Of a DNA stretch of 64,000 bases, positions 1,052 to 63,105 are shown piece by piece; the first letter of the stretch is position 1, and the number at the start of each line of letters is the position of its first letter. The DNA comes from Candidatus Woykebacteria bacterium RBG_13_40_15. GTDB lineage: Bacteria > Patescibacteriota > Microgenomatia > Woykebacterales > RBG-16-39-9b. The DNA lies in assembly GCA_001816655.1 (NCBI GenBank), contig MHCP01000025.1, forward strand, positions 78,428-142,427. Direction: 5' to 3'. Position numbers and translations under genes: made by a program. The notes under the pieces are model-generated. The model saw only the letters and a list, made by a program, of their open reading frames with translations, did not search any database and was not told the origin of the DNA.

Positions 1052-1624
1052 ATGAATACAGTAAAAGTTTTGATTGAAGGGTACGCTAAACAAGTAGAAA
1101 ACGGGTGGATTGCCAGTTCCACTGTTACTCTAGTTCAAAGCAATAATTTAAACATTATTGTCGATCCTGGTTGCAACCGCCAAAGATTGATAGATGAGCT
1201 AGCCAAAGAAGGTTTAAAGCCAACTGACATAGATTTTGTCCTCCTCACCCACTTCCACACCGACCACACCCTTTTGACCGGTATGTTTGAAAACGCAAAA
1301 GTTTTAAATGAGGAAGAAATTTACGACGGCGATAAACAAATTGATCACAACGGAAAAATTCCCGGCACAGATCTAAAAATAATTCCAACACCCGGCCACA
1401 GCGAAGACGGCGTTTCTCTGATAGTTCCTACAGACGAGGGCACCTACGCCGTAATTGGCGATGTATTTTGGTGGAAAGACAACGAAAAGCAAGTTCTCGA
1501 TATAAACAGGCCCGATCCTTATATTGACGATATGACCGAAATAATTCAAAGCCGAAAGAAAGTAATTAAACTCGCTGACTTCATAATCCCCGGCCACGGA
1601 AAAATAATGAAGGTAAGGAAATGA
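1052..1624 (+). CDS. MBL-fold metallo-hydrolase
   Basis: It has the HxHxDH zinc-binding motif (LLTHFHTDHT) and a downstream His/Asp (IIPGHG). Confidence 0.8.
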   Translation: MNTVKVLIEGYAKQVENGWIASSTVTLVQSNNLNIIVDPGCNRQRLIDELAKEGLKPTDIDFVLLTHFHTDHTLLTGMFENAKVLNEEEIYDGDKQIDHNGKIPGTDLKIIPTPGHSEDGVSLIVPTDEGTYAVIGDVFWWKDNEKQVLDINRPDPYIDDMTEIIQSRKKVIKLADFIIPGHGKIMKVRK

Positions 1625-1675
1625 ATGGGGCCCCCAAACAAGAGAGCCCCGTTGATGAGCATAGGTTGTTTCAGC

Positions 1676-2056
1676 CTACTGGACGATGATCTTCGCCTCC
1701 TCGCGACTTAACGCCATGGCCAGTGACCCCTCACCGATCAAAAGGCTACTAAACCAGTTAGCTGCGTACGGTTTGTTCGCAGCTAGCAGAGCTCGTGAAG
1801 CTTCCCTTGCTGAAACCGCGTAGCCATATCGCAGCTCTAAACCCCTTCCCACGAATGCGTGACTGTACATCATGATGGAGTCAGGTAGATTCGTGGCGTT
1901 GAACCTGACTCCAATTAGTGCCTTTTCGACCCATTCTGGGGCCTGACCGGCAAGCACTTTCACAACTTCTACTAGCACGAGGACACCTCCCCTTTCTAGG
2001 AAAAGCGTTGATGGACATCCATACGAACCGATTGGTTGAAGTATATCAAGAAGCAA
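1676..2056 (-). CDS. hypothetical protein in a higher-GC segment (about 1620-2100)
   Basis: This 126-aa ORF is the longest in a short GC-rich patch. No motif was recognised, and whether it is coding at all is uncertain. Confidence 0.25.
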   Translation of the reverse strand: MLLDILQPIGSYGCPSTLFLERGGVLVLVEVVKVLAGQAPEWVEKALIGVRFNATNLPDSIMMYSHAFVGRGLELRYGYAVSAREASRALLAANKPYAANWFSSLLIGEGSLAMALSREEAKIIVQ

Positions 2057-2131
2057 TTACTGGTTTCAACTATGAGTTTAATTGTAATAGGTTACTTTAA
2101 TCTTCAGTAAATTTGTGATACCTTTCCAATA

Positions 2132-2476
2132 ATGGGCAACAAAGTTCTTTTAAAAGGAACTGGGGCTAGTCCTGGAATAGTTCGCGGTATTGTAAGACTT
2201 GTAAAATTTCAAGAAGAGGTTGAAATGCTGAGCCAAGGAGAGATTTTGGTAACCTCTTTTATAAATCCTGATTTTGTCTCCTCAATTAAAAGAAATCCAA
2301 AAATTTCAGGGATAATAACAGACAAGGGCGGTGCTACTTGTCACGCAGCTATAATAGCAAGGGAGTTTAAAATATCTTATATTGCTGGCGCTGCCGGTGC
2401 AACGAAAAGATTAAAAAACAACCTGGAAGTAATTATAGATGGAGGAAAAGGGATTATTTATGAGGCTCCTCAATAA
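2132..2476 (+). CDS. Stand-alone PEP-utilising-enzyme mobile (swivel phosphohistidine) domain protein
   Basis: GGATCHAAIIAREFKI is the canonical phosphohistidine swivel-domain signature of PEP synthase, PPDK and rifampin phosphotransferase. Confidence 0.7.
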   Translation: MGNKVLLKGTGASPGIVRGIVRLVKFQEEVEMLSQGEILVTSFINPDFVSSIKRNPKISGIITDKGGATCHAAIIAREFKISYIAGAAGATKRLKNNLEVIIDGGKGIIYEAPQ

Positions 2477-3056
2477 GTTTAAAAAGGTTAAAGGCATAAA
2501 AGACTTAGGGAAATATAACTTGCCGACACCAGAAACAATTTTTATTTTTGATTTTGAAAAGCAAGAGAAAGAAATAGACGATTTTATAAAAAATAGAAGA
2601 TACCTGATGATAAGATCGGATAAAGAAAACGATATTGATTTTTGCCCTCATAATCTAGTTTGTCCAAAAGCAGAAGCTAAAGATTTTATCAAGGGGCTAG
2701 TATCAAAAAAATATGTGGTTATTCTTCAGGAATGTATTCCCTGGCAGGAAGATAAAATCTCTGGAAATATTTTGACCCTTAAAAATGAAATGCTAATAGA
2801 ATTAATGAAAGGAGGCCCATTAACTTTGCTAAACAGAGAAGGTAATGTAGATGAAAGTATAAAAATTAAAAGAAAGAATTTAGGGAAAAGAGAGTATTCT
2901 GGAAGAAGAATTATAAAGAAGAAAGATTTAGATACTATTCTAAGAATGGTTAAAGGGATGCAGCCTTATAAGATCGTAGAATTTAGTATTGGACCAAATT
3001 GGCTCTACTTTTGGCAAATAAGAGACGATAAAACAGCTAAAGAACTCGAGGGTTAA
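2439..3056 (+). CDS. hypothetical protein, possibly a PPDK/PEPS N-terminal-type nucleotide-binding domain
   Basis: It overlaps the upstream gene by 38 nt, which suggests translational coupling. LGKYNLPTPETIFI resembles the G.K..NL....LPVP.GF.I motif of PPDK_N domains. Confidence 0.4.
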   Translation: MEEKGLFMRLLNKFKKVKGIKDLGKYNLPTPETIFIFDFEKQEKEIDDFIKNRRYLMIRSDKENDIDFCPHNLVCPKAEAKDFIKGLVSKKYVVILQECIPWQEDKISGNILTLKNEMLIELMKGGPLTLLNREGNVDESIKIKRKNLGKREYSGRRIIKKKDLDTILRMVKGMQPYKIVEFSIGPNWLYFWQIRDDKTAKELEG

Positions 3057-3125
3057 CAGCTCTTCTTTTCATTAAAGATTCCAAATCGCCTTCTAACCTG
3101 TGGGAAATTTCCTCCCCGATACTAA

Positions 3126-3506
3126 TTAGAAATGCGGGATAAAAAGAATTGCGCCGATTATGACAGCGAAAACAGAAGTTAAAAGCACAGCGGCCGCTGC
3201 TACATCTTTAGCGAGTTTCGCATCTGGTAAAAGTTGCTCCTTTACGGCGATATCAACTACTACTTCAACCACAGTATTTATAAGTTCCGAAGCTAAAACA
3301 AGTCCAACCGTTAAAATTAAAATCAACCACTCAATCCTGGAGAAGTTTAGAAAACAAGCGGCAATCAGAGCAATTATTCCAACAACAATCTGAATTTGGA
3401 AGTTCCGTTGATTTAGTAATGCATGAGCGAGACCACCAGATGCTAAGCGAAAACTCTCTATACGATTTTTATTGCCATATGTTCCGATAGCCATACATGT
3501 GTTCAC
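3126..3506 (-). CDS. dgkA: diacylglycerol/undecaprenol kinase DgkA family
   Basis: A 126-aa, three-TM protein with ASELINT(V)VE...VD, which matches the DgkA E..N.AIE..VD signature. Confidence 0.75.
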   Translation of the reverse strand: MNTCMAIGTYGNKNRIESFRLASGGLAHALLNQRNFQIQIVVGIIALIAACFLNFSRIEWLILILTVGLVLASELINTVVEVVVDIAVKEQLLPDAKLAKDVAAAAVLLTSVFAVIIGAILFIPHF

Positions 3507-3507
3507 G

Positions 3508-3582
3508 TGGTGCCGAGGGGCGGAATTGAACCGCCGACGCCGGCTTTTTCAGAGCCGCGCTCTACCACTGAGCTACCTCGGC
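3508..3582 (-). tRNA. tRNA-Phe (anticodon GAA)
   Basis: I folded the reverse complement by hand: acceptor GCCGAGG, D arm GCTC/GAGC, anticodon loop CTGAAAA, T arm GGCGG-TTCAATT-CCGCC, CCA encoded. Confidence 0.85.
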
Positions 3583-3688
3583 ACGTAGCAATACATTATA
3601 TAAGAATACAAACTATTCGTCCAACCAATCTGTTGGACGGTACCCCGATTGAATCGGGGTGGCTTCCTCGGCCTGCCCGCCATATTTT

Positions 3689-3766
3689 TGGTGGAACCGG
3701 GAGGATTCGAACCTCCGGCCTTCTCGGTGTAAACGAGACGCTCTGGACCAACTGAGCTACGGTTCC
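3689..3766 (-). tRNA. tRNA-Val (anticodon TAC)
   Basis: Acceptor GGAACCG/CGGTTCC, anticodon stem TCTCG/CGAGA with loop TTTACAC, T arm GGAGG-TTCGAAT-CCTCC, CCA encoded. Confidence 0.85.
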
Positions 3767-3776
3767 GCTTTGGCAG

Positions 3777-3820
3777 GCGGGTGTAAACGAGGCGCTCTAG
3801 CCAACTGAGCTAACCGTCCC
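3777..3820 (-). pseudogene. Truncated tRNA-Val-like 5' fragment
   Basis: GGGACGGTTAGCTCAGTTGGCTAGAGCGCCTCGTTTACAC is about 44 nt matching the 5' half of the adjacent tRNA-Val. It loses complementarity after the anticodon loop and has no T arm. Confidence 0.5.
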
Positions 3821-3822
3821 TA

Positions 3823-3909
3823 TGGTGCGGACGAGAGGACTTGAACCTCCACAGGATTGCTCCCACAGCCTCCTCAAGGCTGCGCGTCTACCAATTCCGC
3901 CACGTCCGC
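3823..3909 (-). tRNA. tRNA-Leu (anticodon GAG)
   Basis: An 87-nt class II tRNA with a long variable arm. Acceptor GCGGACG/CGTCCGC, anticodon loop TTGAGGA, T arm GGAGG-TTCAAGT-CCTCT, CCA encoded. Confidence 0.85.
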
Positions 3910-3917
3910 AAGTATCC

Positions 3918-4005
3918 TGGTGCCGGGAGGGGGACTCGAACCCCCACGAACTCATCGCTCCCAGGATTTTAAGTCCTGTGCGTCTACCAATTCCGCCATC
4001 CCGGC
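3918..4005 (-). tRNA. tRNA-Leu (anticodon TAA)
   Basis: An 88-nt class II tRNA. Acceptor GCCGGGA/TCCCGGC, anticodon loop CTTAAAA, T arm GGGGG-TTCGAGT-CCCCC, CCA encoded. Confidence 0.85.
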
Positions 4006-4093
4006 AAGACTTAGTAATTCTAACAAATTTACCCTTAATTTCCAAGTTCTAACACTTGTTTTACAAAGGCCAATTAGATATGATTAGCTACGA

Positions 4094-5362: not shown

Positions 5363-5471
5363 CTCTTTTCGAGGGCATTTAATTAATCCTACCTTGACTT
5401 TTTCCCTAGAAAGAAATAAATTTTCTGATTAGATTGCCAGCTACACCAGCCAGACTAGAAAGGAGGGAGCC

Positions 5472-6200
5472 TTGCCTGAAACTAAGCATGCGAAAGAATT
5501 AACAGCTCTGGAGCATCGTAGCCTTTTGCTTGCTCTAAGAGAACCCTCTTCCACGTTCAGACAGATCGTGGAGGAAATCGAAGGAGAGCGTTGGTGTCGT
5601 AACGCAGCGAAAGAAGATCTGCTATTGTGGATCAAAGAAGCTCTTCAAGGTGCAGTAGATAAGATCGGTCGTAGATGGGCTAACACACACCCACGTAGCT
5701 TCCCTGGAGAGCTTAAGCAAAGATATTTCGACCTAAACGCATTCCGTGATGCAATGGCTCATATAATCGCTTGTTGGGAGGAAGAGCTCTCTGATAGAAG
5801 GTTGGAAGAGGAGCAGATTACTCATCAAGAGGCGAATCTTCCAGGTGGGTTTGAGCCCCCTCGGTTCGAAGCAGAACCAGTCCCTGTCGAAGAAGAAGAA
5901 GAAGAAGAAGAAAGGATGGTGGTAGAAAGCACTTCGGGTGAGATCACCCATCCCGTAGCATCTGGTCAGACGCAACAAATTACCCCACCTCGGGTCTGCC
6001 CAAGATGCAGGGGTACTATGATCGCCGAGCGTGATTGGTACGGCTCTTACAGAAGCTGCCTCAATTGTGGCAATGTTCAAGAGCTAGATTCTGCCAACAT
6101 TGCTCGTGCGGAAGAAATACTCACTCCAAGTGGAGGTGGAGACAACGAAAGGAAGAGAACGAAAGGCCCAAGCACAAGGCACGGGACCTTAAGGCTTTAG
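5472..6200 (+). CDS. hypothetical acidic protein with C-terminal C4 zinc ribbon, in a higher-GC segment
   Basis: It has CPRCRG...CLNCG and an internal poly-Glu run encoded by (GAA)8. GC is visibly higher than the flanking genes. Confidence 0.35.
   Translation: MPETKHAKELTALEHRSLLLALREPSSTFRQIVEEIEGERWCRNAAKEDLLLWIKEALQGAVDKIGRRWANTHPRSFPGELKQRYFDLNAFRDAMAHIIACWEEELSDRRLEEEQITHQEANLPGGFEPPRFEAEPVPVEEEEEEEERMVVESTSGEITHPVASGQTQQITPPRVCPRCRGTMIAERDWYGSYRSCLNCGNVQELDSANIARAEEILTPSGGGDNERKRTKGPSTRHGTLRL
5888..5911 (+). repeat. (GAA)8 trinucleotide microsatellite inside the CDS (poly-Glu)
   Basis: gaagaagaagaagaagaagaagaa is visible in the sequence. Confidence 0.9.
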
Positions 6201-6263
6201 AAGGGTCAGCTGCAAACGTGGTTGGCCCTTCTGTCACATTTAATTGGTCGTTAATTTTTAGAT

Positions 6264-6953
6264 TTAGAATTTAAATTTGGCTACAAAATCGAAACTGCAA
6301 GTGCAAGGCGCATTTTTACAAACATGGCAATCATTAGAAAAAAGAGTTGAGAGTTCTTTTGAAACATCCACCTCAATTGAATTAAATACCCCCATCAGAC
6401 AGGAGTAAAGATCAGCTGCTTCTTTTGAAATTTTATCAAAATCCTCTTCTTTGTGCTGACCACGAAAAGTCAAGACGCTTTCAGAAAACTCGCCCAATTC
6501 TTCTGCCAGGTGAATACCCCCATGTTCCAAGCTCCTCTCCTCAGGAGGATAAATTCTCCTAAACATTTTTTGAAAGTCACTTAAAGTTGCTGGTTTCAAG
6601 GCCTTAACATTATTAGGAATGGATTTGCGTTTTTTAACCTTTTTCTCCTTACAGGAACATGGGCAAGTACTACAATAAGAGCAAAGATAAGGAAACCTAC
6701 TCCAAATTTCATCCTCAATTTGTATATGAAGATGGTTCATTATAGACATGAGCCAACTAAGTGAGAGTAAAAGATTAATTTTTGTTTTTTCCCGGTCTTT
6801 TTTTCGAATACCTTTCAGTCCCCTCATTGCAAATCTTTGTGTATTAGTCAGCAAGTTACCGACACTATAATTTCGCATATTGTGTAGACCATAGACTTGT
6901 TGAACGAAATCTTGGTATTCAGAAATTGTGCTATTAGGCTTAACCGATGGCAT
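6264..6953 (-). CDS. hypothetical protein with a MazG-like NTP-pyrophosphohydrolase motif and a Cys-rich insert
   Basis: IHLAEELGEFSE resembles the MazG EExGE metal-binding helix. CSYCSTCPCSC forms a Cys cluster. Confidence 0.35.
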   Translation of the reverse strand: MPSVKPNSTISEYQDFVQQVYGLHNMRNYSVGNLLTNTQRFAMRGLKGIRKKDREKTKINLLLSLSWLMSIMNHLHIQIEDEIWSRFPYLCSYCSTCPCSCKEKKVKKRKSIPNNVKALKPATLSDFQKMFRRIYPPEERSLEHGGIHLAEELGEFSESVLTFRGQHKEEDFDKISKEAADLYSCLMGVFNSIEVDVSKELSTLFSNDCHVCKNAPCTCSFDFVAKFKF

Positions 6954-7068
6954 AAGTGCCTCTATTGTAGTTTTAAATAGACCAAAAAGTCAATTATAGG
7001 TTAGTTTAGAGATGGCAAAATCAATTCTATGGTGAGCATGTCGAATCCATGTATAATTAAATAGGTGA

Positions 7069-7701
7069 TTGGGGGCTAAATTGAAAAACTTACACAGGTA
7101 TTATTCGATCTTCTCTTACAAGTTTACGCAGTTAATTATCGCTTGTACCGCCGTTTTTGTTCTATCGTTGGTAGTAAAACTATTTCCGATTTCACAACTA
7201 GAGATAGCCTTATTCCGTTTGATTAATCACCTACCAGGCGTGCTTTATTTACCTTTAGTTATAATAATGCAGGCTGGTGCTTATTTTTCGATACTTATCT
7301 TTGCAACTATTGCTTTTGTTTTTAAGAAAAGGTTTCTTGCAGCAGAGTTACTTTTTGGTGGGACGTTAGCTTGGATTCTAGCTTGGGCTATAAAGTTAGC
7401 TGTTGTTAGACCTAGGCCTTTTGAAGTTTTAAGCCAAGTTTCATTGCGTGAATCAAATGTATATGGTTTTGGATTTCCTTCCGCGCACGCAGCAGTTGCC
7501 GCCGCTCTTGTAGCTGTCGCAAGCTTTCACTTCAAGAGTTGTTATTCATGGCTACTTTGGGTAGCAGTATTGATTGTTGCTTTTGCAAGAATTTATATGG
7601 GAGTTCATCTTCCGCTTGATGTAGCGGGAGGAGTTGCCTTGGGTTGGTTTGCGGGCCTTTTTACCCAATTAATTTTCAAATCTACCAGAAAAAGCGATTG
7701 A
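7069..7701 (+). CDS. PAP2-family phosphatase (undecaprenyl-diphosphatase-like membrane phosphatase)
   Basis: The PAP2 motifs KxxxxxxRP (KLAVVRPRP), PSGH (FPSAHA) and SRxxxxxHxxxD (ARIYMGVHLPLD) are present, with multiple TM helices. Confidence 0.75.
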   Translation: MGAKLKNLHRYYSIFSYKFTQLIIACTAVFVLSLVVKLFPISQLEIALFRLINHLPGVLYLPLVIIMQAGAYFSILIFATIAFVFKKRFLAAELLFGGTLAWILAWAIKLAVVRPRPFEVLSQVSLRESNVYGFGFPSAHAAVAAALVAVASFHFKSCYSWLLWVAVLIVAFARIYMGVHLPLDVAGGVALGWFAGLFTQLIFKSTRKSD

Positions 7702-7703
7702 AT

Positions 7704-8156
7704 CTACTTAATATATTCGGTATAACCGCCAAGAAGGTTATAAACTTCCCTGAAGCTTTCTTGTTTAAACACCTCAAGTGCTTTGGAGCTTCGGCCGCCG
7801 GATTTACAGTAAATTAGATAGGCACCATTTTTGTCTAAGGAAGCAATTTTTGATTCGAAATCGCTTTGGTAAAAGTCAATGTTAGTAGCATTTTCAATAT
7901 GCCCTTGTGCAAACTCGTCGGGAGTTCTAATGTCAATTATAAGAAAGTCTTTATTACCAGAGTTTCGTTTGATTAGTTCCTTAGCGTCAGTGGTGGAGAT
8001 TGATTGATAAGTCTCCGTTTTAGCCTGTAAAATATTATTTGTATTACCCTCTTTGGAAACTTCTTTAGTTTTAGAGTTTCCAATGACAACAAAAATTCCA
8101 AAAATTGCTCCAATTATTAAAATACCTATTACGAAAAGTTTTGTATTGTTTTTCAT
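7704..8156 (-). CDS. membrane-anchored rhodanese-domain sulfurtransferase
   Basis: Rhodanese fold with the active-site loop CKSGGRS and one N-terminal TM. The start was chosen at MKNNTKLFVIG; the 40 codons upstream that extend the ORF track overlap a dispersed repeat and are probably not coding. Confidence 0.7.
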   Translation of the reverse strand: MKNNTKLFVIGILIIGAIFGIFVVIGNSKTKEVSKEGNTNNILQAKTETYQSISTTDAKELIKRNSGNKDFLIIDIRTPDEFAQGHIENATNIDFYQSDFESKIASLDKNGAYLIYCKSGGRSSKALEVFKQESFREVYNLLGGYTEYIK

Positions 8157-8209
8157 GTAGCAATTGTAACAGAAATAATTATTAATTTCTGGGGGACTGA
8201 GAGTTGTCT

Positions 8210-8271
8210 GGTGTACTAAATTTATCCTGAGCGAAGTCGAAGGAAAGCGAAGGTTTAGAACTTTTTGTGCC
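8210..8271. repeat. Dispersed repeat family, copy A (partial)
   Basis: ggtgtactaaatttatcctgagcgaag...gaaggtttagaactttttgtgcc shares the 3' block (GTAGGAGAAYYTTTTRGTGC-like) and the ttatcctgagc block with copy B. Confidence 0.6.
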
Positions 8272-8399
8272 GACATCTAACCAGCCGCTTCTAGAATCTT
8301 TAAAACAACTTTATGATGTTTTTCTGAATTTCTCAATTACTTAATGTTATATATTAGTATTGATTTTTTCAACTTAAAAAAGTATCATGCTATTATACG

Positions 8400-8768
8400 A
8401 CTAAGGTAAAACCAACATCAACGCTAGCTTTAGAAGAAGCAAGGGAAGCAGTAGTAAAAATTAGGACCTTAAAGCCTCTCCTTTCCCCAATGGACTAGGA
8501 AACTCTTGTTACTCTAATGGACAAGGAATTGATGGGGCACCTAGATAAAAGCCTGAAAGAGGCTGAAAGGGGTCAACTGGAACCTCTAAAAAACATTTTA
8601 ATTTAGATGTATCAAAGAGTTACTACTCTCTCAGCTAAGCGTTCTCTTAAAAAGCTCCCCTTGAAATTACGTGAGGAAATCATAAACGCTACCAAGGTAC
8701 TTGAGGAGAATCAGCTAGAAGGCGAAAAACTTTCCGGTAGTCTTAATTTCCTGTACTCCTTCTTGTAA
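8400..8768 (+). pseudogene. Decayed type II toxin–antitoxin remnant (antitoxin-like fragment plus truncated RelE/ParE-like toxin)
   Basis: Hand translation of 8607-8768 gives MYQRVTTLSAKRSLKKLPLKLREEIINATKVLEENQLEGEKLSGSLNFLYSFL. This is the N-terminal half of a RelE/ParE fold (KLSG.L.G.Y) that stops before the catalytic C-terminus. Upstream fragments (...LEPLKNIL) are antitoxin-like. No intact ORF of 60 aa or more is present. Confidence 0.4.
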
Positions 8769-9068
8769 TAATTCATTTTGCTGATAAAAGAGAAAACTTC
8801 TACAAGAAGTTGCGTAACCTTTTCCGCTAGATTAAAGACAAGTCTGTTTATTCTTTTAGGACTAAACCCTTCTTTGAAAACTTCTTCAATAGGGAACTTT
8901 TATGCTCTTATTTAAACAAAGAAAAACGACCCATTTCTGAGTCGTTTCTCCTCCTAAGAAAACCAATTTCTTGATTTGCTTAGGGAAAGGCAGGTCTCAC
9001 AGGCAGAGCCTCAAGCCTCTCCTTCAATTTCCTAAAGGATGGGTTTAGTTCGACGAGGCAGTTTGTGC

Positions 9069-9383
9069 TTAAGAAAGCCGCTCGTTCAGACTGTCAATTG
9101 CTACGGAGATGGCCGCATGGCGGTAATCCAGTTGCTCTAGCTCCTGAATTACCCAAGGCAATGCTTCCTCTAGGATAATCATTGCCTCCAGAGTCCGAAG
9201 CTGACTGCATAGGCCTCCGATTTCCTGCAGTCTGCCTCTTTCCAATTCCTCAGCAGACATGAATCTTCCGCCGCTCCTGACCCCACCTCTTGCCATAGCG
9301 GGCTCAATTCCCTTCAGGTTCTCGCAGTGCGTTTTTATAGAGGTTATTACTGCCTCGTGTGCAGGTTTTAGTTCTTTTGGCAT
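9069..9383 (-). CDS. hypothetical protein in a higher-GC segment
   Basis: A 104-aa ORF with no recognised motif. Confidence 0.25.
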   Translation of the reverse strand: MPKELKPAHEAVITSIKTHCENLKGIEPAMARGGVRSGGRFMSAEELERGRLQEIGGLCSQLRTLEAMIILEEALPWVIQELEQLDYRHAAISVAIDSLNERLS

Positions 9384-9527
9384 CTCTCACCTCCCTTTCT
9401 TGATTGCTAGATTATATCAAACTATGTCAAAGTTGTTTGCAATAGATTGATGCAGCCTTACACCCCTGGGGTGTTTTAGGTTTACACCTGCGGTCGTTTA
9501 TATTATTTTTGATTTGTAGTGATGATT

Positions 9528-9577
9528 ACAAGGACGGGCCTTGCAAGCTGACAAGCTCATAAATGAAAAAGGAGTAA
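9528..9577. repeat. Repeat family RepA, copy 1
   Basis: acaaggacgggccttgcaagctgacaagctcataaatgaaaaaggagta is about 48 bp and nearly identical to 12549-12596. It contains the perfect hairpin GCAAGG-ACGGG-CCTTGC followed by an AAGGAG tract. Confidence 0.8.
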
Positions 9578-9613
9578 TTCGTGCGTCAACCCCGCGGGTT
9601 GGAAGCTAAATAG

Positions 9614-9640
9614 ACAACGAAGGGGTTGGTTGTTTAAGGG
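9614..9640. repeat. Repeat family RepB, copy 1 (partial)
   Basis: acaacgaaggggttggttgtttaaggg matches the copies at 10751-10790 and 11442-11477. Confidence 0.7.
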
Positions 9641-9709
9641 ATCAAATCCTCTGTAATACCTGTAAAAGCACTTGAAAATCGTCTAAAAATCGTCTAAAAT
9701 TAGTCTAAT

Positions 9710-10747: not shown

Positions 10748-10750
10748 GTC

Positions 10751-10790
10751 TGTAAATAAACAATGAGGGGGGGGGGTGGTTGTTGATTGA
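10751..10790. repeat. Repeat family RepB, copy 2 (carries a G9 homopolymer)
   Basis: tgtaaataaacaatgagggggggggtggttgttgattga. Confidence 0.7.
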
Positions 10791-14011: not shown

Positions 14012-14019
14012 TATATTTG

Positions 14020-53787: not shown

Positions 53788-55034
53788 TGTTTATTTTCTA
53801 AGTATGATTCAATCTCAGCCAAACGATTGTATTTTGCTAGCCGCTCTTTTTGTAAGGGGCAGCCGGCTTTCAAAAAATCGGCATTGACAGCAACGGCTAA
53901 ATCAGAAATGAAGGTATCCATTGTCTCTCCAGCACGGTGAGAAATTATTATTTTCAATTTATTCTCAATAGCCTCTTCAATGAAATCTAGGGTCTCTGTT
54001 AATGTTCCAATTTGGTTCGGTTTAACAATCACGCCATCTATCGAATCGTCGGCTATAATTTTTCTCAATAGATCAACATTAGTTACCGTAAAGTCATCAG
54101 CTATCAAAATGCTGGCGGGAGAGAGTTTTTGTTTCGCCAACTTCCAACTATCAAAATCTTCTTCAAAAAGATCCTCAAAAGAAAATATGTTGTAGCTTTC
54201 CTGTAGTTTCTTATAAAAATCCAATAAATCATTGGCAACGAGGGGATTTTCAATATCTGTTATCTTATATTTTCCATTTTGGTAAAAAGTTGAAGCAGCT
54301 ACATCGATACCAATAGAAAAGAAACTGGCTTTGAAGGTTTCTTCTAAAACTTTTTTTAAGAAATCTATTGCTTTTTCGTTACTAGTAAAACGCGCAGCAA
54401 ATCCGCCTTCCTGTCCCAACTTTCCATCTAAACCATTTCTCTTAAGGGATACTTCCAACTTAGAAATCACTTCACCTACTGCATTTAATTTTTCTTTGGC
54501 AGTCATAAATCCGGTAGGTATAACCAAAAATTCCTGAAAATCAAGGCCACTATTCGCATGCTTCCCTCCTTCAATTAAATTCACCATTGGGGTTGGAACA
54601 GCGAATCCGGTACTTATTTTTGTTAAACCTCGCAAGTATTCGAACAGCTGAAGTTTTTGATTCGCAGCGGTCGAAACTGCTACTGCCAGTGAAACAGAAA
54701 GAATTGCATTTGCACCAAGTTTCGATTTATTCGGGGTGCCGTCAAGAGAAATCATTGTCCTATCAATTTTTTCCTGGTCATCACTATCTGTGCCCTTTAA
54801 ACTGGACTGAATTGGACCAACAACGTTTTCAACTGCCTTCAAAACCCCATTCCCATTAAACCTATTTGGATCTCCATCACGAAGTTCTAACGCCTCGTTG
54901 GTCCCAGTAGAAGTACCTCCCGGCACACAAGCTTCTCCAATTATACCATTGGAAAGAGTTACTGTTGTCTTCAATGTGGGAATACCTCGGGAGTCAAGAA
55001 TTTCTTCCGAGGAGATTTTCTCAATTACACTCAT
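53784..55034 (-). CDS. eno: enolase
   Basis: SRGIPT, SHRAGETMD and VKPNQIGTLTE. It overlaps gpmI by 4 nt, so eno–gpmI–acs form an operon. Confidence 0.9.
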   Translation of the reverse strand: MSVIEKISSEEILDSRGIPTLKTTVTLSNGIIGEACVPGGTSTGTNEALELRDGDPNRFNGNGVLKAVENVVGPIQSSLKGTDSDDQEKIDRTMISLDGTPNKSKLGANAILSVSLAVAVSTAANQKLQLFEYLRGLTKISTGFAVPTPMVNLIEGGKHANSGLDFQEFLVIPTGFMTAKEKLNAVGEVISKLEVSLKRNGLDGKLGQEGGFAARFTSNEKAIDFLKKVLEETFKASFFSIGIDVAASTFYQNGKYKITDIENPLVANDLLDFYKKLQESYNIFSFEDLFEEDFDSWKLAKQKLSPASILIADDFTVTNVDLLRKIIADDSIDGVIVKPNQIGTLTETLDFIEEAIENKLKIIISHRAGETMDTFISDLAVAVNADFLKAGCPLQKERLAKYNRLAEIESYLENKQ

Positions 55035-56944: not shown

Positions 56945-57044
56945 AAATTTTGCGTTAAGTTTACAATAGAGCGCGCGCCTGGTCAATATGATCAGGGGCA
57001 AGACTCTCGAAGAAGTCTTGCCCCTCGTTCTGGCAATTGATCCC

Positions 57045-58112
57045 TTAACTCAACCCTCCTATCGCAACTCCCCGGAAGCTTATCCGATAACCCTCACTAA
57101 CAGCTTTGAGGAACGGAAGGTTTTCTGGCGTAACGGCCGCCATCAAACCCCCATTGACAATTTGGCCTGGGGTAAACGCAGCGATTGTTCCCTGCCGACC
57201 TCGTTGGGCGAAGGTACTCACTGCAAGTCTCATCGCTCGGGCATCACGACCTATGTACATTAGCTGGGAACGGTCGCATACCCTACCCTTGCCATTGACC
57301 ATTACCGACAGGCCCTGGTCGGCGAGAAGCTCAACACACTTCACATCGGTCTGACTGTCCCCAACATAGACCGCCCTTTCTCTTGGTATATCGCAATTGC
57401 GAAGATGCCTCTCCAACGCATCCCTCTTCTGCGCCTGGCCTACTGGATGAACGGCTGTCAGGAAGTGATGACCAACCTGCGTACCATATACTTCCCGCCA
57501 AACGATTTCCTTCAGCCGCTCCGCGTACTGACGACTGTCCTCATACACGCACCCTTCCTTATCGAATTCGACGAGCGGCATACTAGCGACTTCCTTCATC
57601 AGGGCCAAAAGGTGTTTCTGATGCCCAATTGGCACGGACACCCTCTCAAAGTCACCAACAACCGTACAGGTAGCACGGTCGAAGGGAAAGCCGACGGCGT
57701 CGCAGAAGGCTCTGACGAAGAAGTCGTAGCTTGTTGAGATCAACCCCGTTTTGTAAGCTCCGTTGAGGAATCGAAGAACTTCCCCAGTGTGTGGAACAAC
57801 TCGCAGACTTCGGCGTGAGAAACCGTAGAGCCAACTGTCCCCAACACCTGCTACCGCCACCATTGCCCTTAAGAATGGAAGGATTACCTTCAGGGTATGG
57901 CCCGCAGAGTAGGTTCGGTCTATATCAGCGACAAGTGCGAAATCCCCCCAAAGATCATCGATGTTACTGATTGCCTCAAAGAACTTCCGCCCAACCGCTG
58001 CCCCCAATCCACAGAGCCTTGCCAAGGCCACTGTCAGTTCGAAGGCGTTATCGTTTCGAACTAGAGGTCCTTCGACATCAAGATCAACAGCTATTTTATT
58101 TGTAGGCTGCAT
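57045..58112 (-). CDS. hypothetical protein with HAD-like motifs, GC-rich segment
   Basis: VDLDVEGPL fits motif I (DxDx[TV]) and YVGDSQTDV fits motif IV (GDxxxD). The other motifs are uncertain. Confidence 0.3.
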   Translation of the reverse strand: MQPTNKIAVDLDVEGPLVRNDNAFELTVALARLCGLGAAVGRKFFEAISNIDDLWGDFALVADIDRTYSAGHTLKVILPFLRAMVAVAGVGDSWLYGFSRRSLRVVPHTGEVLRFLNGAYKTGLISTSYDFFVRAFCDAVGFPFDRATCTVVGDFERVSVPIGHQKHLLALMKEVASMPLVEFDKEGCVYEDSRQYAERLKEIVWREVYGTQVGHHFLTAVHPVGQAQKRDALERHLRNCDIPRERAVYVGDSQTDVKCVELLADQGLSVMVNGKGRVCDRSQLMYIGRDARAMRLAVSTFAQRGRQGTIAAFTPGQIVNGGLMAAVTPENLPFLKAVSEGYRISFRGVAIGGLS

Positions 58113-58237
58113 TCCTTCCCTCCTCGTAACGATATATTTCTCGCCTCCTGATGTAATGTACTAAGGAAATAAATAATACGTTCGCTATCCCACTCTTTCC
58201 AAAATAATTTGTAATTCCAAATCGCCAAGAAATAATT

Positions 58238-59530
58238 TTATTGCTTTAGTGGTTCTGGGGGAACTGTTACTATTCGATTTTTCCTCATCTTATAACAACT
58301 AAAGCCTGCTGCACCAATAGCCAATAGTGCCAGTAGGCCAAGGAGAGAATAGAAGTAAAAATTGCTTTTTACTAAGACAAGGGTTCCACTTATAGTAGCC
58401 GAAGCAGTCGCTCCATTTAAGGAAAGTGCATTAACTACTATGTAATTGAGCCCTTCTACCAAATCAAGCTTAGTTTCAAATTGTCCAGAAACTGTTGAAA
58501 CTTTTATTTTACCCAAATTTCGATTATTTAATTTTGCCGAAACAGAAGCTGTTGGATCGCTAACCACCCCTTTTAAGGTAATTTGTTTATCATGCACCTC
58601 AAAGTTATTTGAAGGTTCGGTTACACTAACTGACGGTGCCGCTTTAAAAACGGAAAAATGAGTCACATCAAAGGTAAGGGTACCTTTTGCGTACTTAATG
58701 TTTGAAACGATACTTTTATCTTCCTTGCCATTGACCAAAACTCGCGGGGTCGCTATCCAAGGTAGGCCTTTCATAGTTACCGACGCTTTTTTGTTTAGCT
58801 CTGGCAAGGAACTTGAATTTAAATCAACTATAGCAGTCGTCCCCAGCCTAACGTACTCGTCAAGCTTTTTAAATTTTTCCTTTACTTCTTTCGAAGAAAG
58901 ATTCACCGGTTCTTTAAACTTCAGTGTTGCTTTTTTCGTATCAAGTATCAAACCCTCTACTTTGGTGGTGTCGCTAATTTTCTTCAAATCGGTTGTTTGA
59001 CTTCCCGCCTCATGAAAGACAGCAGGCAAAGTAATATCTTTTATTGTTTCGGGAGGGGGTGGGACATATTTTGATAAATAAACTGTCGGTATTTCACCCT
59101 GATAATGGCTTATTGAAACAGTTTTTGTCTGGTAACCGCTTTTGGAAATAATAACCTGCATCGACGCTGCTTCTTGGCAGCTAATCATATAAAAACTGCC
59201 AGTATCAGTGAAAAAGTAGTCTGACCCAGAGTCGCCGCAGTGGAATGAAGCTTTATTAACGACTTCGGCAGTTGCCCCATTGATATAGGACTCATTCGTA
59301 GTCCCAGGTAACACTGCTCCCAAAACAGCTTCCTTCAAATGAAATTTATAATGGTAATTTTGGACTGTCGCGGTCAAGACATTACCTTGCAGAAGCTGAG
59401 CAAAATTTGTGTTTCTGTTTGCCTCTTCCTTATCAGATTTTGATCTGAGTGTTAAGAAATCCAAAACAACAAAAGCAAGGAGCAAAAGTGAAAGTAGAAA
59501 AATAATCCGAGCAGTCCTTATACTCATCAA
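58238..59530 (-). CDS. hypothetical surface protein with N- and C-terminal TM segments
   Basis: A 430-aa protein with hydrophobic termini and a Ser/Thr/Val-rich beta-like middle. Confidence 0.45.
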   Translation of the reverse strand: MMSIRTARIIFLLSLLLLAFVVLDFLTLRSKSDKEEANRNTNFAQLLQGNVLTATVQNYHYKFHLKEAVLGAVLPGTTNESYINGATAEVVNKASFHCGDSGSDYFFTDTGSFYMISCQEAASMQVIISKSGYQTKTVSISHYQGEIPTVYLSKYVPPPPETIKDITLPAVFHEAGSQTTDLKKISDTTKVEGLILDTKKATLKFKEPVNLSSKEVKEKFKKLDEYVRLGTTAIVDLNSSSLPELNKKASVTMKGLPWIATPRVLVNGKEDKSIVSNIKYAKGTLTFDVTHFSVFKAAPSVSVTEPSNNFEVHDKQITLKGVVSDPTASVSAKLNNRNLGKIKVSTVSGQFETKLDLVEGLNYIVVNALSLNGATASATISGTLVLVKSNFYFYSLLGLLALLAIGAAGFSCYKMRKNRIVTVPPEPLKQ

Positions 59531-59593: not shown

Positions 59594-59902
59594 CTAGCCA
59601 TCCGTTCTTTCTAGAATAGTTTTCTTCTTAAATGCTCCTTTTTCGTTTGCTTTTTTCTGTCTTATTAATTCAATTTTTCTTTTATCGATACCTTTTAGGT
59701 CGCAAATCGCGTAGATTATTTCAAGTAAATCTGCCAGTTCTTCAACACTACTATTTCTTTTAAATTCTTCAATTTCCTCTGCTAATTTTTCAATTAGTTT
59801 TTGCTCGAATTCTTTCTTACCCGCTTTGTGGGTAACAGGTTTTAAATTGGATTTTTTAATTATTTCCGGAATTTTGTCTCTTACCAATTTGTTATACTCC
59901 AT
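59594..59902 (-). CDS. MazG-like nucleotide pyrophosphohydrolase family protein
   Basis: LVRDKIPEII...KLAEEIEEF...EELADLLEIIYAICDLKGI is the EE..E / E.ADLL helix pair of the MazG/PRA-PH-like fold. Confidence 0.5.
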   Translation of the reverse strand: MEYNKLVRDKIPEIIKKSNLKPVTHKAGKKEFEQKLIEKLAEEIEEFKRNSSVEELADLLEIIYAICDLKGIDKRKIELIRQKKANEKGAFKKKTILERTDG

Positions 59903-60014
59903 TGCTTGCAGTATAACAGATATTTAACGAAATAAATTGGAGGGGTGGGCAGGTTTGGCACGATCATCCACTCCTCTCCTTCTGGTTTTGCCTAGGTTAT
60001 TATCATAACACTTT

Positions 60015-60296
60015 TCACAGCCTTTGCCCCGCTTCCATCCGCCTCTCCTCTTCTCGACGGTAAGCTGCATCTGCTGCGTACAAACTAGCTGCGGCTGCAG
60101 AAGCGATCACTACTACGGTTACCCCTGCAAACAGCTTCTCCAAATGAAGCCAACCAGCACCAACCACTGCAGCCTCAGCTACGGCCAGTGTAGCGAGCAC
60201 AATGCCAAGCACTAGCATCTGGAGACTCCTACTCTCTCGAACTGCCCAATAAAACTCCCAAAGGAGCCACATCTTCTTATCTCTCCTTTCCGTCAC
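60015..60296 (-). CDS. small membrane protein (93 aa), GC-rich
   Basis: Two hydrophobic helices, Ala-rich. Confidence 0.25.
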   Translation of the reverse strand: MTERRDKKMWLLWEFYWAVRESRSLQMLVLGIVLATLAVAEAAVVGAGWLHLEKLFAGVTVVVIASAAAASLYAADAAYRREEERRMEAGQRL

Positions 60297-60454
60297 CGGA
60301 ACTAGTCATTAACCAATATATCAGACTCGCTATGGAAGAGCATACTATATAAATTAAGTAAAAGAAACTTAACAGAATTTACTGCAATAAATAAATGATT
60401 AAATGAAAAAAGTGTGTACACACCAGGAGTGTACCTTTATGAATTACTGAAGGC

Positions 60455-60952
60455 TTACAGGCCGAAGAATTCGAGTTGATAGCGGGTTCCCTCTTCAATC
60501 AAACGGGATTTGTGAATCTTGACAAGTCTACTCCCCCTTCTAAAAAACTCTTTGATCATCACAAAGTCGCTTGGAATAATTATTTTCTTATTCTTTTTAA
60601 TTTCTTCTAACGTAAACCAGTGCAGCTTCCCTTCATCACCCTCCTTTATTTTTCCGCCCTTTAACTTCGTCTCACAAACAAAAAGTAAAAAATGAGCTTT
60701 CCGCACTTTATCAGCTGAGATAAATTCTTCAACAATCCCTCTCAACGATTCGAAGCTCACTTCGAGCCCTGTTTCTTCTTCGAGTTCTCTTACAATCGCT
60801 TTGTCATAGTCTTCGCCAAATTCGATTTTTCCACCGGCCATACCCCAGTGCTCCACAAAAGGTTCTTTGTTTCTTTTTATTAGAAGGAGTTTGCCACTTT
60901 TAACAATTGCCCCAATAACTACATTTAAAATCTTCGGCTTTTCTGCTTCCAC
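60455..60952 (-). CDS. NUDIX hydrolase
   Basis: Nudix box GGKIEFGEDYDKAIVRELEEETGL (Gx5Ex7REUxEExGU). Confidence 0.8.
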   Translation of the reverse strand: MEAEKPKILNVVIGAIVKSGKLLLIKRNKEPFVEHWGMAGGKIEFGEDYDKAIVRELEEETGLEVSFESLRGIVEEFISADKVRKAHFLLFVCETKLKGGKIKEGDEGKLHWFTLEEIKKNKKIIIPSDFVMIKEFFRRGSRLVKIHKSRLIEEGTRYQLEFFGL

Positions 60953-61442
60953 AGCAGAATTATATCACGAAGTTTAATTTTTGGTGGGTGATCTCCCTCC
61001 TTTCCAAAAGAGTCCCCACAAAGTCTCTAGTAGATCCAGCCTTTACAGTGTGCCCAGTGGAAGATACAGGCAAAAAGACCGATGGCAAAAAAGCCTGCGC
61101 CAAAAGCCGCTACATTCAAGGTTGAGATATCCTCCGATGTCAAATGGAAACATATCGCCAACAGGAACAAGGCAAAGGCAACTAAGACCCCAACGTGTGC
61201 GAGAAAAACTTGCAAGTCTCTCATTTCTATCTCCCCCTTCTGCAAATTAGATTCTGACAGGAAACAATATGCCGGATAAAATCCTAGCGTATTATACACC
61301 AAAACAAAATACGGAGATCTAGAACAAAAAGTAACTTCTATAAGTCTTAAGTTTAGTGTAAAATCATCTCCAATCAAGCAAATGCTTAGCTGGCACACTG
61401 ACAACAAAACACGCCACACCTTTCGAAAGGAAGGGATCTGAT

Positions 61443-62195
61443 ATGGAGAGAGTCGTTATCAACGTCGATGCTATCAAGCAAAGGATCTCCAGATTTGAGC
61501 AACTCGCCCAACAAGCCACCACTAGTGGCGATAGAGACAAAGCATGGCGGCTTAAAAACCAAATTGAGACCTATAGACGAGTGCTGCGCCTACTGGACGA
61601 ACTCAAAAAGGCGGGGCTTGCGCAGCAGTTTGACCAATCATCAATACCACTGCGCAGCCTCTCAAACGCTAAATCAACCTCCTTCCGGCAAAAACCGGAA
61701 CGAAAGAAAACGCATCTCAGGCGAAGACGGAAAACGACTATAAGAATATCCAGTCTCATACTCGGCGAACGCCTACAGGTAATGGAGGCTGCACTTTTTG
61801 GCGAGTACAGAAGCTACCAAGAGCTGGGATCGGTCTTTTGGCCCAACGAACTGGAGTCAAAAGGGCTAAAGTACGTCGCAGGTAAGGCTTCCCAGCTAAT
61901 ACAGCAAGGCTTCTGGAGAATGAGCAGAGTTCTGGAAAACGGAGAGAAGGGATTAGCTCGTCTTGATCTACCAGAGATCGAAAAAGCCTTTTACCAAAGG
62001 GTTCTTCAGGAATACGGACCTGATGCCATCAAGGTAATTTCCAGGGGGCTTGGTATACGAGACCTGGACGGAAAAAGAAAAAGCAGCGATAGCCTACGGC
62101 GACTTCGAGAGGATATTGCCTCAGGTAAAGGGCTGAAGGTTGGAGATCGAATTTCAATTGCGAGCCAGAAGGGAGAGGAGCCGCCGCCTTGGTAG
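61443..62195 (+). CDS. hypothetical protein (250 aa), GC-rich
   Basis: ORF only. A basic patch RRRRK sits mid-protein. Confidence 0.3.
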   Translation: MERVVINVDAIKQRISRFEQLAQQATTSGDRDKAWRLKNQIETYRRVLRLLDELKKAGLAQQFDQSSIPLRSLSNAKSTSFRQKPERKKTHLRRRRKTTIRISSLILGERLQVMEAALFGEYRSYQELGSVFWPNELESKGLKYVAGKASQLIQQGFWRMSRVLENGEKGLARLDLPEIEKAFYQRVLQEYGPDAIKVISRGLGIRDLDGKRKSSDSLRRLREDIASGKGLKVGDRISIASQKGEEPPPW

Positions 62196-62242
62196 GGAAA
62201 CCGACAGGTGGCGTCTCTTTATCTAGAGCACAGATGTTCGGG

Positions 62243-62641
62243 TTATCTCTCCCACTTCTTTACATGAGGAGAAAAATCTACTTGGTACTCTGGTATCCCT
62301 AGGGAAATCCCGTACTTACTGGCCTCGTCATATTGATCTTTGTTTGTCCTATCAATAAAGAAAACTTTATTTGGAAAAATAATGTAGTGGTGGGTTTCAT
62401 TTTTGAAATCAGCGTACCAGGATCCTTCGTGTTTCGTGTCAAGAGATTTGCTAATTTCCCCTGCCACCTCTTTTGCCTGATCGGAAGGCACTTCAACAAG
62501 ATGTAAAGTCCACTGCCCCAACCAAGGAGTCTTGTGCTTTTCAGTCACTTTCTCAACTCTCATCGAAATGATCTTTACCTTTTTGAGAACTTCTTTGTTA
62601 CTTAGAGACTCCTCAATAATATCCCCTTTATAATTACCCAT
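62243..62641 (-). CDS. hypothetical protein (132 aa)
   Basis: ORF with low-GC codon usage and no motif. Confidence 0.4.
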   Translation of the reverse strand: MGNYKGDIIEESLSNKEVLKKVKIISMRVEKVTEKHKTPWLGQWTLHLVEVPSDQAKEVAGEISKSLDTKHEGSWYADFKNETHHYIIFPNKVFFIDRTNKDQYDEASKYGISLGIPEYQVDFSPHVKKWER

Positions 62642-62853
62642 AGCTTGTATCTTACAACAAAAATGATTTTATTAGAATCTAGAAATCTTTTTATCCTGTA
62701 GCCTTTTTAAGTGATATTTACTAAAATTTTCCTTGCATTCTTTTTTGACGCAAATTATTATTGTACCCATTAACCTCCCCACCTATCGCTGTTAGGAATG
62801 GAAAGAGTGAGCAGGGATCAAGCTGATTAAAATCGAAGCAAGGGGAGGGATCA

Positions 62854-63105
62854 ATGGAAACTGCACCAACATTACGGCAAACAGCCCACCTACCACCAGA
62901 TCTCGATCGCTTGTTAAGCGTTAGAGAAGTAGCAAACAAACTAGGCATCGCTCCAATCACAGTACTACGACACATAAGGAGCGGCGACCTGAAAGCGATC
63001 GACTTTGGCACCGAATACTTGATCCACAGTGACGAAGTGGAGAGGTTCAGATCGAAGGGTTACAAGAAGACACGAGGGCGAAGGGCCAAAAGGAGGTTGT
63101 TATGA
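62854..63105 (+). CDS. excisionase/MerR-family helix-turn-helix DNA-binding protein
   Basis: LLSVREVANKLGIAPITVLRHIRSGDLKA matches the excisionase-family HTH (L.v.E.A..LgvS..TvyR.i.sG.L). It has a basic C-terminus and lies in a GC-rich segment. Confidence 0.55.
   Translation: METAPTLRQTAHLPPDLDRLLSVREVANKLGIAPITVLRHIRSGDLKAIDFGTEYLIHSDEVERFRSKGYKKTRGRRAKRRLL

Follow-up and report, generated by a model that had tools for sequence, protein, structure and literature searches.

The window analysed here is a 64,000-nucleotide (nt) stretch of contig MHCP01000025.1 of Candidatus Woykebacteria bacterium RBG_13_40_15, in which AT-rich chromosomal genes are interrupted by 15 short GC-rich patches; the nature and origin of these patches, and the way in which their genes appear to be translated, are the subject of this analysis. 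Pfam searches place in the window YidC, an SPFH protein, PyrD, SOD, Lon, SecG, UvrA, UvrB, UvrC, LexA, Nramp, a 2-oxoacid:ferredoxin oxidoreductase, iPGM, enolase and DsbA/VKOR, among others, all of these host genes having a GC content of 0.35-0.44. No GTDB species representative has an enolase more than 45% identical to that of the window, the matches being metagenome-assembled genomes of the candidate phyla radiation (CPR) type. Lon has metagenomic relatives at 78% (L008), 71% (L010) and 69% (L009) identity, where L-numbers designate the loci or contigs of related genomes that were compared with the window, and the nearest named relatives of two window genes come from Staskawiczbacteria and Parcubacteria. 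Given the low GC of the native genes and their CPR-type relatives, the window can be assigned, on these sequence grounds, to the chromosome of an uncultured low-GC lineage of the Patescibacteria (CPR).

Overall, the GC content of the window is 0.415; in 400-nt sliding windows the background moves between 0.31 and 0.43, and many stretches reach 0.50-0.57. When patches are defined as 300-nt windows lying at least 0.10 above the median GC of 0.403, the 15 patches obtained have a GC of 0.48-0.53 and sum to 12,750 nt, i.e. 20% of the window, over a background of about 0.38 (Table 1). Two classes also emerge at the level of genes (n = 66), where a two-component mixture model fitted without class labels is preferred over a single component both for GC (means 0.383 and 0.513; difference in Bayesian information criterion 26) and for GC at third codon positions (GC3; means 0.337 and 0.540; difference 21); with class labels set by GC, the GC-rich and native genes differ at p = 7e-10 (Mann-Whitney). 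The encoded proteins are shifted as well, Arg amounting to 8.5% in GC-rich versus 4.2% in native proteins and Lys to 4.2% versus 8.9%. How unusual is such a mosaic? Related loci of 8 kb or more (n = 67) have a median of 3% of their length in such patches, and only two of them equal or exceed the 20% of the window (L044 with 26% and L015 with 21%).

The compositional mosaic is thus real and exceeds what relatives usually show, much as the original prediction, made from the letters alone, had proposed. GC is not uniform in sliding windows; 11 of the 12 GC-rich segments that it listed closely match patches of the threshold scan; uvrA, uvrB, uvrC, lon, pyrD and eno, which it had called A/T-rich core genes, were all found by Pfam and have a GC of 0.36-0.42; and the distinct codon usage and unusual density that it claimed agree with the GC3 values and patch fractions given above. 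Two corrections have to be made, since the segment proposed at 60980-63110 is GC-rich at 61443-62195 and 62854-63105 and holds an AT-rich conserved gene (62243-62641) in between, and a tRNA patch (3426-4075) was missing from the list.

The patches do not all contain the same kind of gene. Two of them are tRNA operons, GC-rich as in any low-GC genome: the array at 3508-4005 accounts for patch 3426-4075, and the operon at 37808-38768 has its own promoter (TTGACA at 38036-38041, an 18-nt spacer and TAATAT at 38060-38065) and includes degenerate tRNA-like pieces at 38170-38236 and around 38340-38400. The tRNA-Ile of this operon, with anticodon TAT, lies at 38418-38494, and the doubtful tRNA-Val (AAC), an ARAGORN call only, at 38695-38768. 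The term 'cassette', applied earlier to all segments, does not suit these two; the remaining patches are mostly protein-coding.

Most of the coding patches hold small GC-rich open reading frames (ORFs), about 14 in number and 68-250 amino acids (aa) long, for which Pfam, NCBIfam, PHROG and PADLOC returned no family except for the excisionase-family helix-turn-helix (HTH) protein at 62854-63105, matched by Pfam, PHROG and NCBIfam; both the general lack of families and this exception had been foreseen. Whereas the native genes have many homologues, 11 of these ORFans had none among 5.8 billion protein clusters (searched as a concatenated query, the two largest also alone) or among reference phages (tblastn); the searched set included 43048-43542 and three ORFs of the cluster at 11531-15326, namely 14077-14415, 14458-14892 and 14967-15326. 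Scans of IMG/VR with two ORFans and the HAD-like gene described below gave no match, and the GC-rich ORFs of relatives are unrelated to the ORFans of the window. Even so, the small ORFs look like real genes, at least by their sequence features: they share the codon-position periodicity GC1 > GC3 > GC2 with the two confirmed enzymes of the GC-rich class, and several are followed by a hairpin terminator on the correct strand. There are weaker cases, e.g. 14967-15326, which has no coding periodicity and is a doubtful gene, and the single-sequence AlphaFold model of 14458-14892 is unusable, with a predicted local distance difference test score (pLDDT) of 36.

The two classes of gene differ, in addition, in their signals for the start of translation. 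A strong, correctly spaced Shine-Dalgarno (SD) sequence, typically similar to GAAAGGAGG and located 5-9 nt before the start codon, precedes 14 of the 15 GC-rich genes compared with 10 of 48 native genes (Fisher p = 6e-7). Because such a sequence precedes only 12% of the in-frame start codons inside these GC-rich ORFs, its frequency is not explained by composition alone. Conversely, a TANNNT box ending 6-7 nt upstream of the start is found at 14 of 48 native genes (control about 5%, p = 5e-8) but at none of the 15 GC-rich ones. In the leaderless genomes that GeneMarkS-2 assigns to 'group C', a -10 box is located 6-8 nt upstream of first-gene start codons (PMC6028130), and the native genes of the window bear what would be the signature of largely leaderless mRNAs. 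Their boxes often read TGnTAAAAT or TATAAT and mostly occur without an SD, for example at lon (22571), uvrC (30115, minus strand), pyrD (18643, minus strand), lexA (43737), 50436-52238 (minus strand) and 60455-60952 (minus strand); no description of a native leaderless -10 signature in Patescibacteria was found in the literature searched. An unbiased scan for ORFs of 35 codons or more whose start codon is preceded by a strong SD returned 40, 20 of which are GC-rich at a nominal threshold of 0.47, with GC-rich DNA making up 20% of the window. The same tendency can be seen in 53 related AT-rich loci, where an SD precedes 11 of 23 GC-rich genes versus 169 of 658 others and a -10 box lies near the start in 1 of 23 versus 191 of 658, many relatives being nearly SD-free. 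What is new here is the coincidence of foreign composition with a different translation-initiation signal; the density of patches is also unusual, as is the fact that most of the genes they carry have no homologues at all. Organisms of the type of L001, a GC-rich relative with syntenic genes, were weighed as possible donors but discounted, the SD fraction of 0.06 in L001 making them unlikely sources.

Table 1. GC-rich patches, genes and other features of the window (window coordinates; GC1/2/3, GC at codon positions 1, 2 and 3)
Feature	Coordinates	Strand	Remarks
GC-rich patches 1-8	1551-2050, 3426-4075, 5726-6250, 8976-9400, 11601-12400, 12726-13725, 13976-15050, 16176-16750
GC-rich patches 9-15	19801-22500, 37626-38825, 42651-43575, 49651-50125, 56951-58125, 59901-60325, 61576-61875
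ORFan, 100 aa from GTG	1676-1978	-	GC 0.53, GC1/2/3 0.60/0.43/0.56; GGAGGT SD; no family, no homologue; longest ORF extends to 2056; terminator hairpin 1650-1627
tRNA array Phe-GAA, Val-TAC, Leu-GAG, Leu-TAA	3508-4005	-	ARAGORN, Rfam
Plasticity zone, 17.2 kb between SPFH gene and lon	5363-22570		Seven GC-rich patches, Fic, Phd/ParE, HNH, toxin-antitoxin remnants
ORFan, 242 aa	5472-6200	+	C-terminal CxxC...CxxC zinc ribbon; AGGAGG SD; downstream hairpin; no homologue
ORFan, 104 aa	9069-9383	-	SD GGGAGGTG; TATAAT box about 27 nt upstream; no homologue
Cluster of small co-oriented SD-led ORFs	11531-15326	-	11531-11812, 12905-13198, 14077-14415, 14458-14892, 14967-15326; AT-richer dips at about 12.4-12.7 and 13.7-13.95 kb; terminator 14056-14031; no families
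ORFan, 152 aa	16237-16695	-	AAGGAG SD, TGGTATAAT box upstream; adjoins tRNA-His; no homologue
Diaminopimelate decarboxylase (LysA)	19818-21113	+	Pfam, NCBIfam; GC 0.52, GC3 0.57; SD GGGGAGGT
Class I/II aminotransferase	21150-22346	+	GC 0.55, GC3 0.62; SD-led
tRNA operon	37808-38768	+	Promoter, degenerate tRNA-like pieces, then Ile-TAT, Asn, Asn, doubtful Val-AAC
Two SD-led ORFans between lexA and uvrB	42741-43542	-	43048-43542 (164 aa), 42741-42947 (68 aa); no family; own terminator at 42401-42373
ORFan, 137 aa	49757-50170	+	AGGAGG SD; promoter-like TTGACT-17-TATATT at 49658-49686; no homologue
Enolase	53784-55034		Pfam
HAD-like gene, 355 aa	57045-58112	-	Weak HAD matches; SD GAGGAGGG; terminator hairpin
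ORFan, 85 aa, predicted membrane protein	60015-60272	-	AAGGAG SD; no homologue
ORFan, 250 aa	61443-62195	+	SD-like AAGGAAGGG; no homologue
Excisionase-family HTH_17 protein, 83 aa	62854-63105	+	Pfam, PHROG, NCBIfam; GC 0.49; SD GGGGAGGG

The GC-rich genes that do belong to larger families allow a closer look at their history. The LysA/aminotransferase pair, singled out beforehand as an exception to the lack of families and confirmed as such by Pfam and NCBIfam, belongs to families also present in other Patescibacteria. The nearest models of the aminotransferase are those of LL-diaminopimelate aminotransferase, at scores below their cut-offs. LysA has its best identity (67%) to a cluster containing a Candidatus Staskawiczbacteria protein, and is about 60-61% identical to proteins of Desulfuromonadales and others versus 59-60% to the L009 copy; for enolase, by comparison, the ceiling among GTDB representatives is 45%. 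The two genes are kept together in six Patescibacteria genomes of differing background GC (window, L009, L089, L094, L098 and L099), are SD-led in all six, and have a GC3 that tracks the host background yet exceeds it, lying 0.06-0.27 above that of neighbouring genes. Between the copies four-fold sites are saturated (identity 0.24-0.34), and GC at these sites (GC4) is 0.39-0.55 versus 0.32-0.38 in core genes; in L089, a 33%-GC genome, the GC3 of the pair is down to 0.28-0.29.

The HAD-like gene, a further family-bearing GC-rich gene with relatives in Patescibacteria, has 261 homologues, the best at 60% identity and a Parcubacteria protein at 49%. In L096, its copy (GC 0.52, SD-led) also stands between AT-rich flanks (0.39 and 0.33). 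Four-fold site identity between the window and L096 is 0.27 (n = 104) for this gene and 0.50 (n = 42) for the adjacent NUDIX gene; the larger divergence of the HAD-like gene suggests that it was replaced and not simply inherited vertically. Homologues in other Parcubacteria (L092/L093 10001-11080; L097 678-1736) lie within purine-biosynthesis operons, directly after PurN, which hints at a possible role in nucleotide metabolism.

Many protein-coding patches sit where relatives have none. In L008 and L009, the SPFH gene, a tRNA Gly-Arg-His cluster and lon are directly adjacent on one strand, the three tRNA genes being contiguous and co-oriented with lon (L008 890-1123; L009 9627-9925), whereas the window has the 17.2-kb plasticity zone at this place, with the tRNA cluster (16872-19575) inverted and split so that SOD, PyrD and an HNH gene lie between tRNA-Arg and tRNA-His. 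In L096, an ENA contig of a closer relative, the NUDIX gene (80% DNA identity) is directly followed by the HAD-like gene, whereas in the window the two are 2.3 kb apart and the intervening DNA includes the ORFan at 60015-60272, absent there in L096. The gap that harbours the ORFan at 49757-50170, between the genes for an AMP-binding enzyme and a tetrapyrrole methylase, contains unrelated genes in L001 (9900-12840) and seems, from this comparison of gene content, to be a hot spot common to both. The mosaic is reversed there, as L001 has a GC of about 0.50 and its genes in this gap are AT-richer (0.40-0.44). As for an association with mobility, the main zone adjoins the tRNA Gly-Arg-His cluster, and the window contains one excisionase-family HTH gene and no integrase.

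How did these genes come to be where they are? The explanation that we regard as likely is the piecemeal horizontal acquisition of GC-rich accessory genes, in addition to the tRNA operons, in a low-GC CPR chromosome with leaderless native genes; this would be a known kind of event, i.e. horizontally acquired atypical genes plus tRNA genes, occurring at unusually high density. Some 18 accessory genes, roughly 15% of the window, would have been gained one or a few at a time from GC-richer, SD-using sources, each keeping a donor-like composition, GC-ending codons, an Arg-rich and Lys-poor protein and its own strong ribosome-binding site. Since an SD of its own would permit translation of a gene from any leadered or read-through transcript, wherever it was inserted, SD-bearing imports may have been retained, whereas the leaderless native style would require a precisely placed promoter. 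Several of the acquired genes would have brought or gained a -10 promoter and a hairpin terminator, and the insertions would have concentrated in the tRNA-adjacent zone between the SPFH gene and lon, with others in intergenic gaps between conserved genes. Horizontal transfer, one of the options raised in the original prediction, is best supported for the protein-coding patches, which combine atypical GC and GC3, Arg-rich and Lys-poor proteins, patchy or no homologues and a start signal of their own. The ORFans probably stem from an unsampled CPR-associated mobile or viral gene pool, whereas the LysA/aminotransferase pair and the HAD-like gene have probably been exchanged among Patescibacteria, the direction of transfer being likewise something that we infer. 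As for the route, illegitimate or homology-assisted recombination after DNA uptake appears more likely than site-specific integration.

Several points weigh against piecemeal acquisition and should be set beside it. Neither an integrase, a transposase, an attC-like or att site nor a target duplication was found in the window, and no donor was found for any ORFan, with the proviso that the homologue search rests on shared 5-residue words, concatenated queries and at most 8000 candidates, so that remote relatives could be missed. In a tetranucleotide (TETRA) comparison of pooled GC-rich with core genes, the GC-rich genes neither grouped together nor clearly split from the core, a comparison that is uninformative because the segments are too short. 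The syntenic comparison covers a few sites, and both the start codons and the leaderless status of native genes are read from the DNA alone. A further point concerns the pair and the HAD-like gene, whose GC, judging from the copies compared, is elevated in several lineages despite synonymous saturation, which simple old transfer followed by amelioration would not predict: for the pair, whose synonymous sites are saturated, the GC difference should by now have been lost if an old import had decayed passively, but this is the case only in L089. Repeated re-import or a force that maintains GC are the alternatives for the persistent GC of the pair.

It is conceivable in this context, albeit doubtful, that the genome has two expression regimes, one of AT-rich leaderless native genes and another of a GC-rich, SD-dependent accessory pool that circulates among Patescibacteria. 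If true, the persistent GC, seen for the pair in six genomes and for the HAD-like gene in two, would imply either that such genes are continually re-imported from a GC-richer, SD-using reservoir (the bacteria that serve as hosts, or viruses of those hosts), or that the flexible genome is a specific target of GC-biased conversion or of selection; foreign genes in SD-poor CPR lineages could then be recognised simply by their SD site.

A related view, to which we would assign a low probability, holds that the GC-rich genes are long-resident and that their GC is actively maintained, be it by GC-biased gene conversion in accessory genes that recombine frequently or by selection on codons or mRNA. 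It draws on the LysA/aminotransferase pair, GC3-elevated above host background and SD-led in six genomes, with a GC4 above that of core genes despite saturation, and on the HAD-like gene, which is GC-rich in both the window and L096. However, most GC-rich ORFs have no homologue at all, relatives included; the proteins themselves are shifted in Arg and Lys, beyond what synonymous sites could account for; the divergence of the HAD-like gene relative to its NUDIX neighbour fits replacement better than vertical descent; and in L089 the GC3 of the pair has fallen.

We consider it equally improbable that the patches as a whole go back to one integrated element or a few (a prophage, an integrative element or a plasmid) whose decayed remains were later scattered by rearrangement. 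Integrative elements have been reported as the major source of ORFans (PMC2718499), and the window offers several features of this kind: the small ORFans of the 11.5-15.3 kb cluster are co-oriented, the excisionase-family HTH gene adjoins ORFans, genes for Fic, Phd/ParE and HNH proteins are found in the main zone, which borders on a tRNA cluster, and the region is clearly rearranged, as the inverted and split tRNA cluster testifies. Yet the search for an integrase, att repeats and structural or replication genes of phages was negative, the HTH gene is the only PHROG match, neither the reference phages nor the IMG/VR scans mentioned above produced a hit, and native genes alternate with the patches across 60 kb, many of the patches being solitary genes in otherwise syntenic contexts. 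For the 11.5-15.3 kb cluster and the 61.4-63.1 kb pair taken by themselves, a decayed mobile element is a plausible origin.

A chimeric metagenomic assembly, in which a low-GC contig would have been joined with GC-rich fragments from other organisms, had been raised as a possibility at the outset. The sequence is probably metagenome-derived, and exact look-ups of three window proteins found no copy in the collection. On the other hand, L088 (ENA ERZ4902897) corresponds to window 19511-20594 with four mismatches in 1084 nt (99.6%) and spans the low-to-high GC junction at 19.8 kb, crossing from the tRNA/promoter region into GC-rich lysA, and L096, from a related organism, repeats the adjacency of an AT-rich NUDIX and a GC-rich HAD-like gene. 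Furthermore, the patches are single-gene units of 0.3-1.2 kb that fit exactly between intact host genes and carry host-type -10 boxes and terminators, and core gene order across them agrees with relatives; at least 15 chimeric joins in 64 kb, all at intergenic boundaries, would be implausible. Owing to L088, L096 and the gene-exact boundaries, chimerism is very unlikely and the contig can be trusted.

Equally remote is the idea that the family-less stretches are structured non-coding RNAs (ncRNAs) of the kind seen in AT-rich thermophiles, their ORFs being accidents of a low stop frequency. Klein, Misulovin and Eddy are said to have used GC-rich islands in 2002 to find ncRNAs in AT-rich hyperthermophiles, and the tRNA operons at 3.4-4.1 and 37.8-38.8 kb do stand out by GC alone; moreover, at 11.8-14.0 kb ORFs overlap on both strands with no convincing gene model. 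Such islands would cover only two or three patches, however, the others being protein-coding. Matches to RNA families or tRNA folds are confined to 3508-4005, 16872-16947, 19424-19575 and 38170-38768, and a permissive Rfam search (E <= 1) found no RNA family besides tRNAs in any other patch, on which ground the ncRNA reading was rejected for the non-tRNA patches. The ORFs also have a codon-position periodicity like that of real enzymes and the SD frequencies given above (14 of 15 versus 12% at control positions), and at 52% GC a given start codon would open 100-250 stop-free codons with a chance per frame of about 1e-2 to 1e-5 by our own calculation. For the 11.8-14 kb stretch, an alternative genetic code was also considered and set aside, the native genes reading through normally in code 11.

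Least credible of all is 'cassette capture' in the integron sense, in which a site-specific recombinase inserts promoterless, attC-bounded cassettes: the units are indeed short, mostly single-gene chromosomal additions without known function, as integron gene cassettes are, and three copies of a 33-nt repeat surround the Fic gene and two small ORFs, but this repeat flanks AT-rich rather than GC-rich genes and is unlike attC core sites, no tyrosine recombinase is present in the window and no window ORF scanned matched Phage_integrase/IntI, neither attC nor attI was seen, the longest inverted or direct repeats flanking 12 units (7-11 nt) equal the shuffled expectation, and the units are dispersed on both strands instead of forming a single co-oriented array, several with promoter-like sites of their own. 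In the absence of an integrase, attC or flanking repeat, recent site-specific integration is not supported either.

Among known systems, the closest parallels to piecemeal acquisition are the atypical genes and ORFan clusters described earlier (PMC2718499; PMC6028130), which are likewise short, deviant in composition and codon usage and poor in homologues, and which cluster near tRNA genes and toxin-antitoxin or Fic-type cargo; integrative elements have been named as the origin of ORFans in general (Cortez et al. 2009, PMC2718499). The window differs in that no integrase or att sites are left and the atypical class has a different translation-initiation signal; in addition, atypical genes frequently have a lower GC in PMC6028130, whereas those of the window are GC-richer than their host and make up about 27% of its genes, compared with an average of 8-9% per genome. 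The group C genomes of the same study (Mycobacterium, Deinococcus) resemble the window in having a Pribnow-type box 6-8 nt upstream of many first-gene starts and an SD on the remainder; their members are mostly Actinobacteria and Deinococcus-Thermus, whereas here a low-GC CPR lineage is concerned and the SD-led class coincides with the compositionally foreign genes. Within the same phylum, the accessible text of a study of groundwater Patescibacteria (PMC12455944) describes islands and single-gene transfers, mostly among Patescibacteria, that cover up to 13% of genome length, hence also many small transfers into streamlined genomes. The GC-rich coding patches described here amount to about 15%, of a single 64-kb window rather than of a genome; most of their cargo has no family or donor, and a contrast between SD-led and leaderless genes was not found in that accessible text.

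Foreign and mostly unknown genes can thus make up about 15% of a genome locally, even where that genome is of the symbiont type and supposed to be streamlined, and the ORFans may belong to a pool of mobile or viral genes of Patescibacteria that has so far escaped sampling. Where native genes are leaderless and SD-poor, imported genes can be recognised, and their start codons set more easily, from the combination of a strong SD with raised GC3; standard gene callers trained on the native class may miss or mis-start the GC-rich genes.

A few further observations concern the plasticity zone and its surroundings. At 8400-8770 there are remnants of a toxin-antitoxin pair, and the truncated ParE-like ORF at 8607-8768, in an otherwise non-coding stretch, indicates gene decay in the zone. 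Two short repeat families with small hairpins (9522-9639, 10721-10785, 11412-11476 and 12543-12590) flank the Fic gene and small AT-rich ORFs: the 33-nt repeat mentioned above, TAAATAAACAATGAGGGGGTTGGTTGTTTAAGG, present three times, and a 48-nt repeat containing CAAGGACGGGCCTTG, present twice at 92% identity. A 59-nt inverted repeat (19609-19667 and 25130-25188, 86% complementary) lies upstream of two divergent tRNA units and brackets lysA, the aminotransferase gene and lon; this repeat probably represents a tRNA promoter region common to both units, with a possible second role as an inversion substrate. At 25198-25218, 21 nt of the tRNA-Arg 5' end are repeated 221 nt upstream of the gene itself. 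Elsewhere, the AT-rich 430-aa ORF at 58238-59530, for which enolase was considered as an assignment and rejected, encodes a membrane-anchored surface protein with an Ig-like (Glucodextran_B/Big_7) domain and has no relative in the genome collection. Finally, two identical copies of a 29-nt unit, AATCAAGACCCTAATCGAGTCTTGTTGTT, each with a hairpin, are found at 34619-34680 with starts 33 nt apart, in the interval that separates the histidine kinase gene from uvrA.

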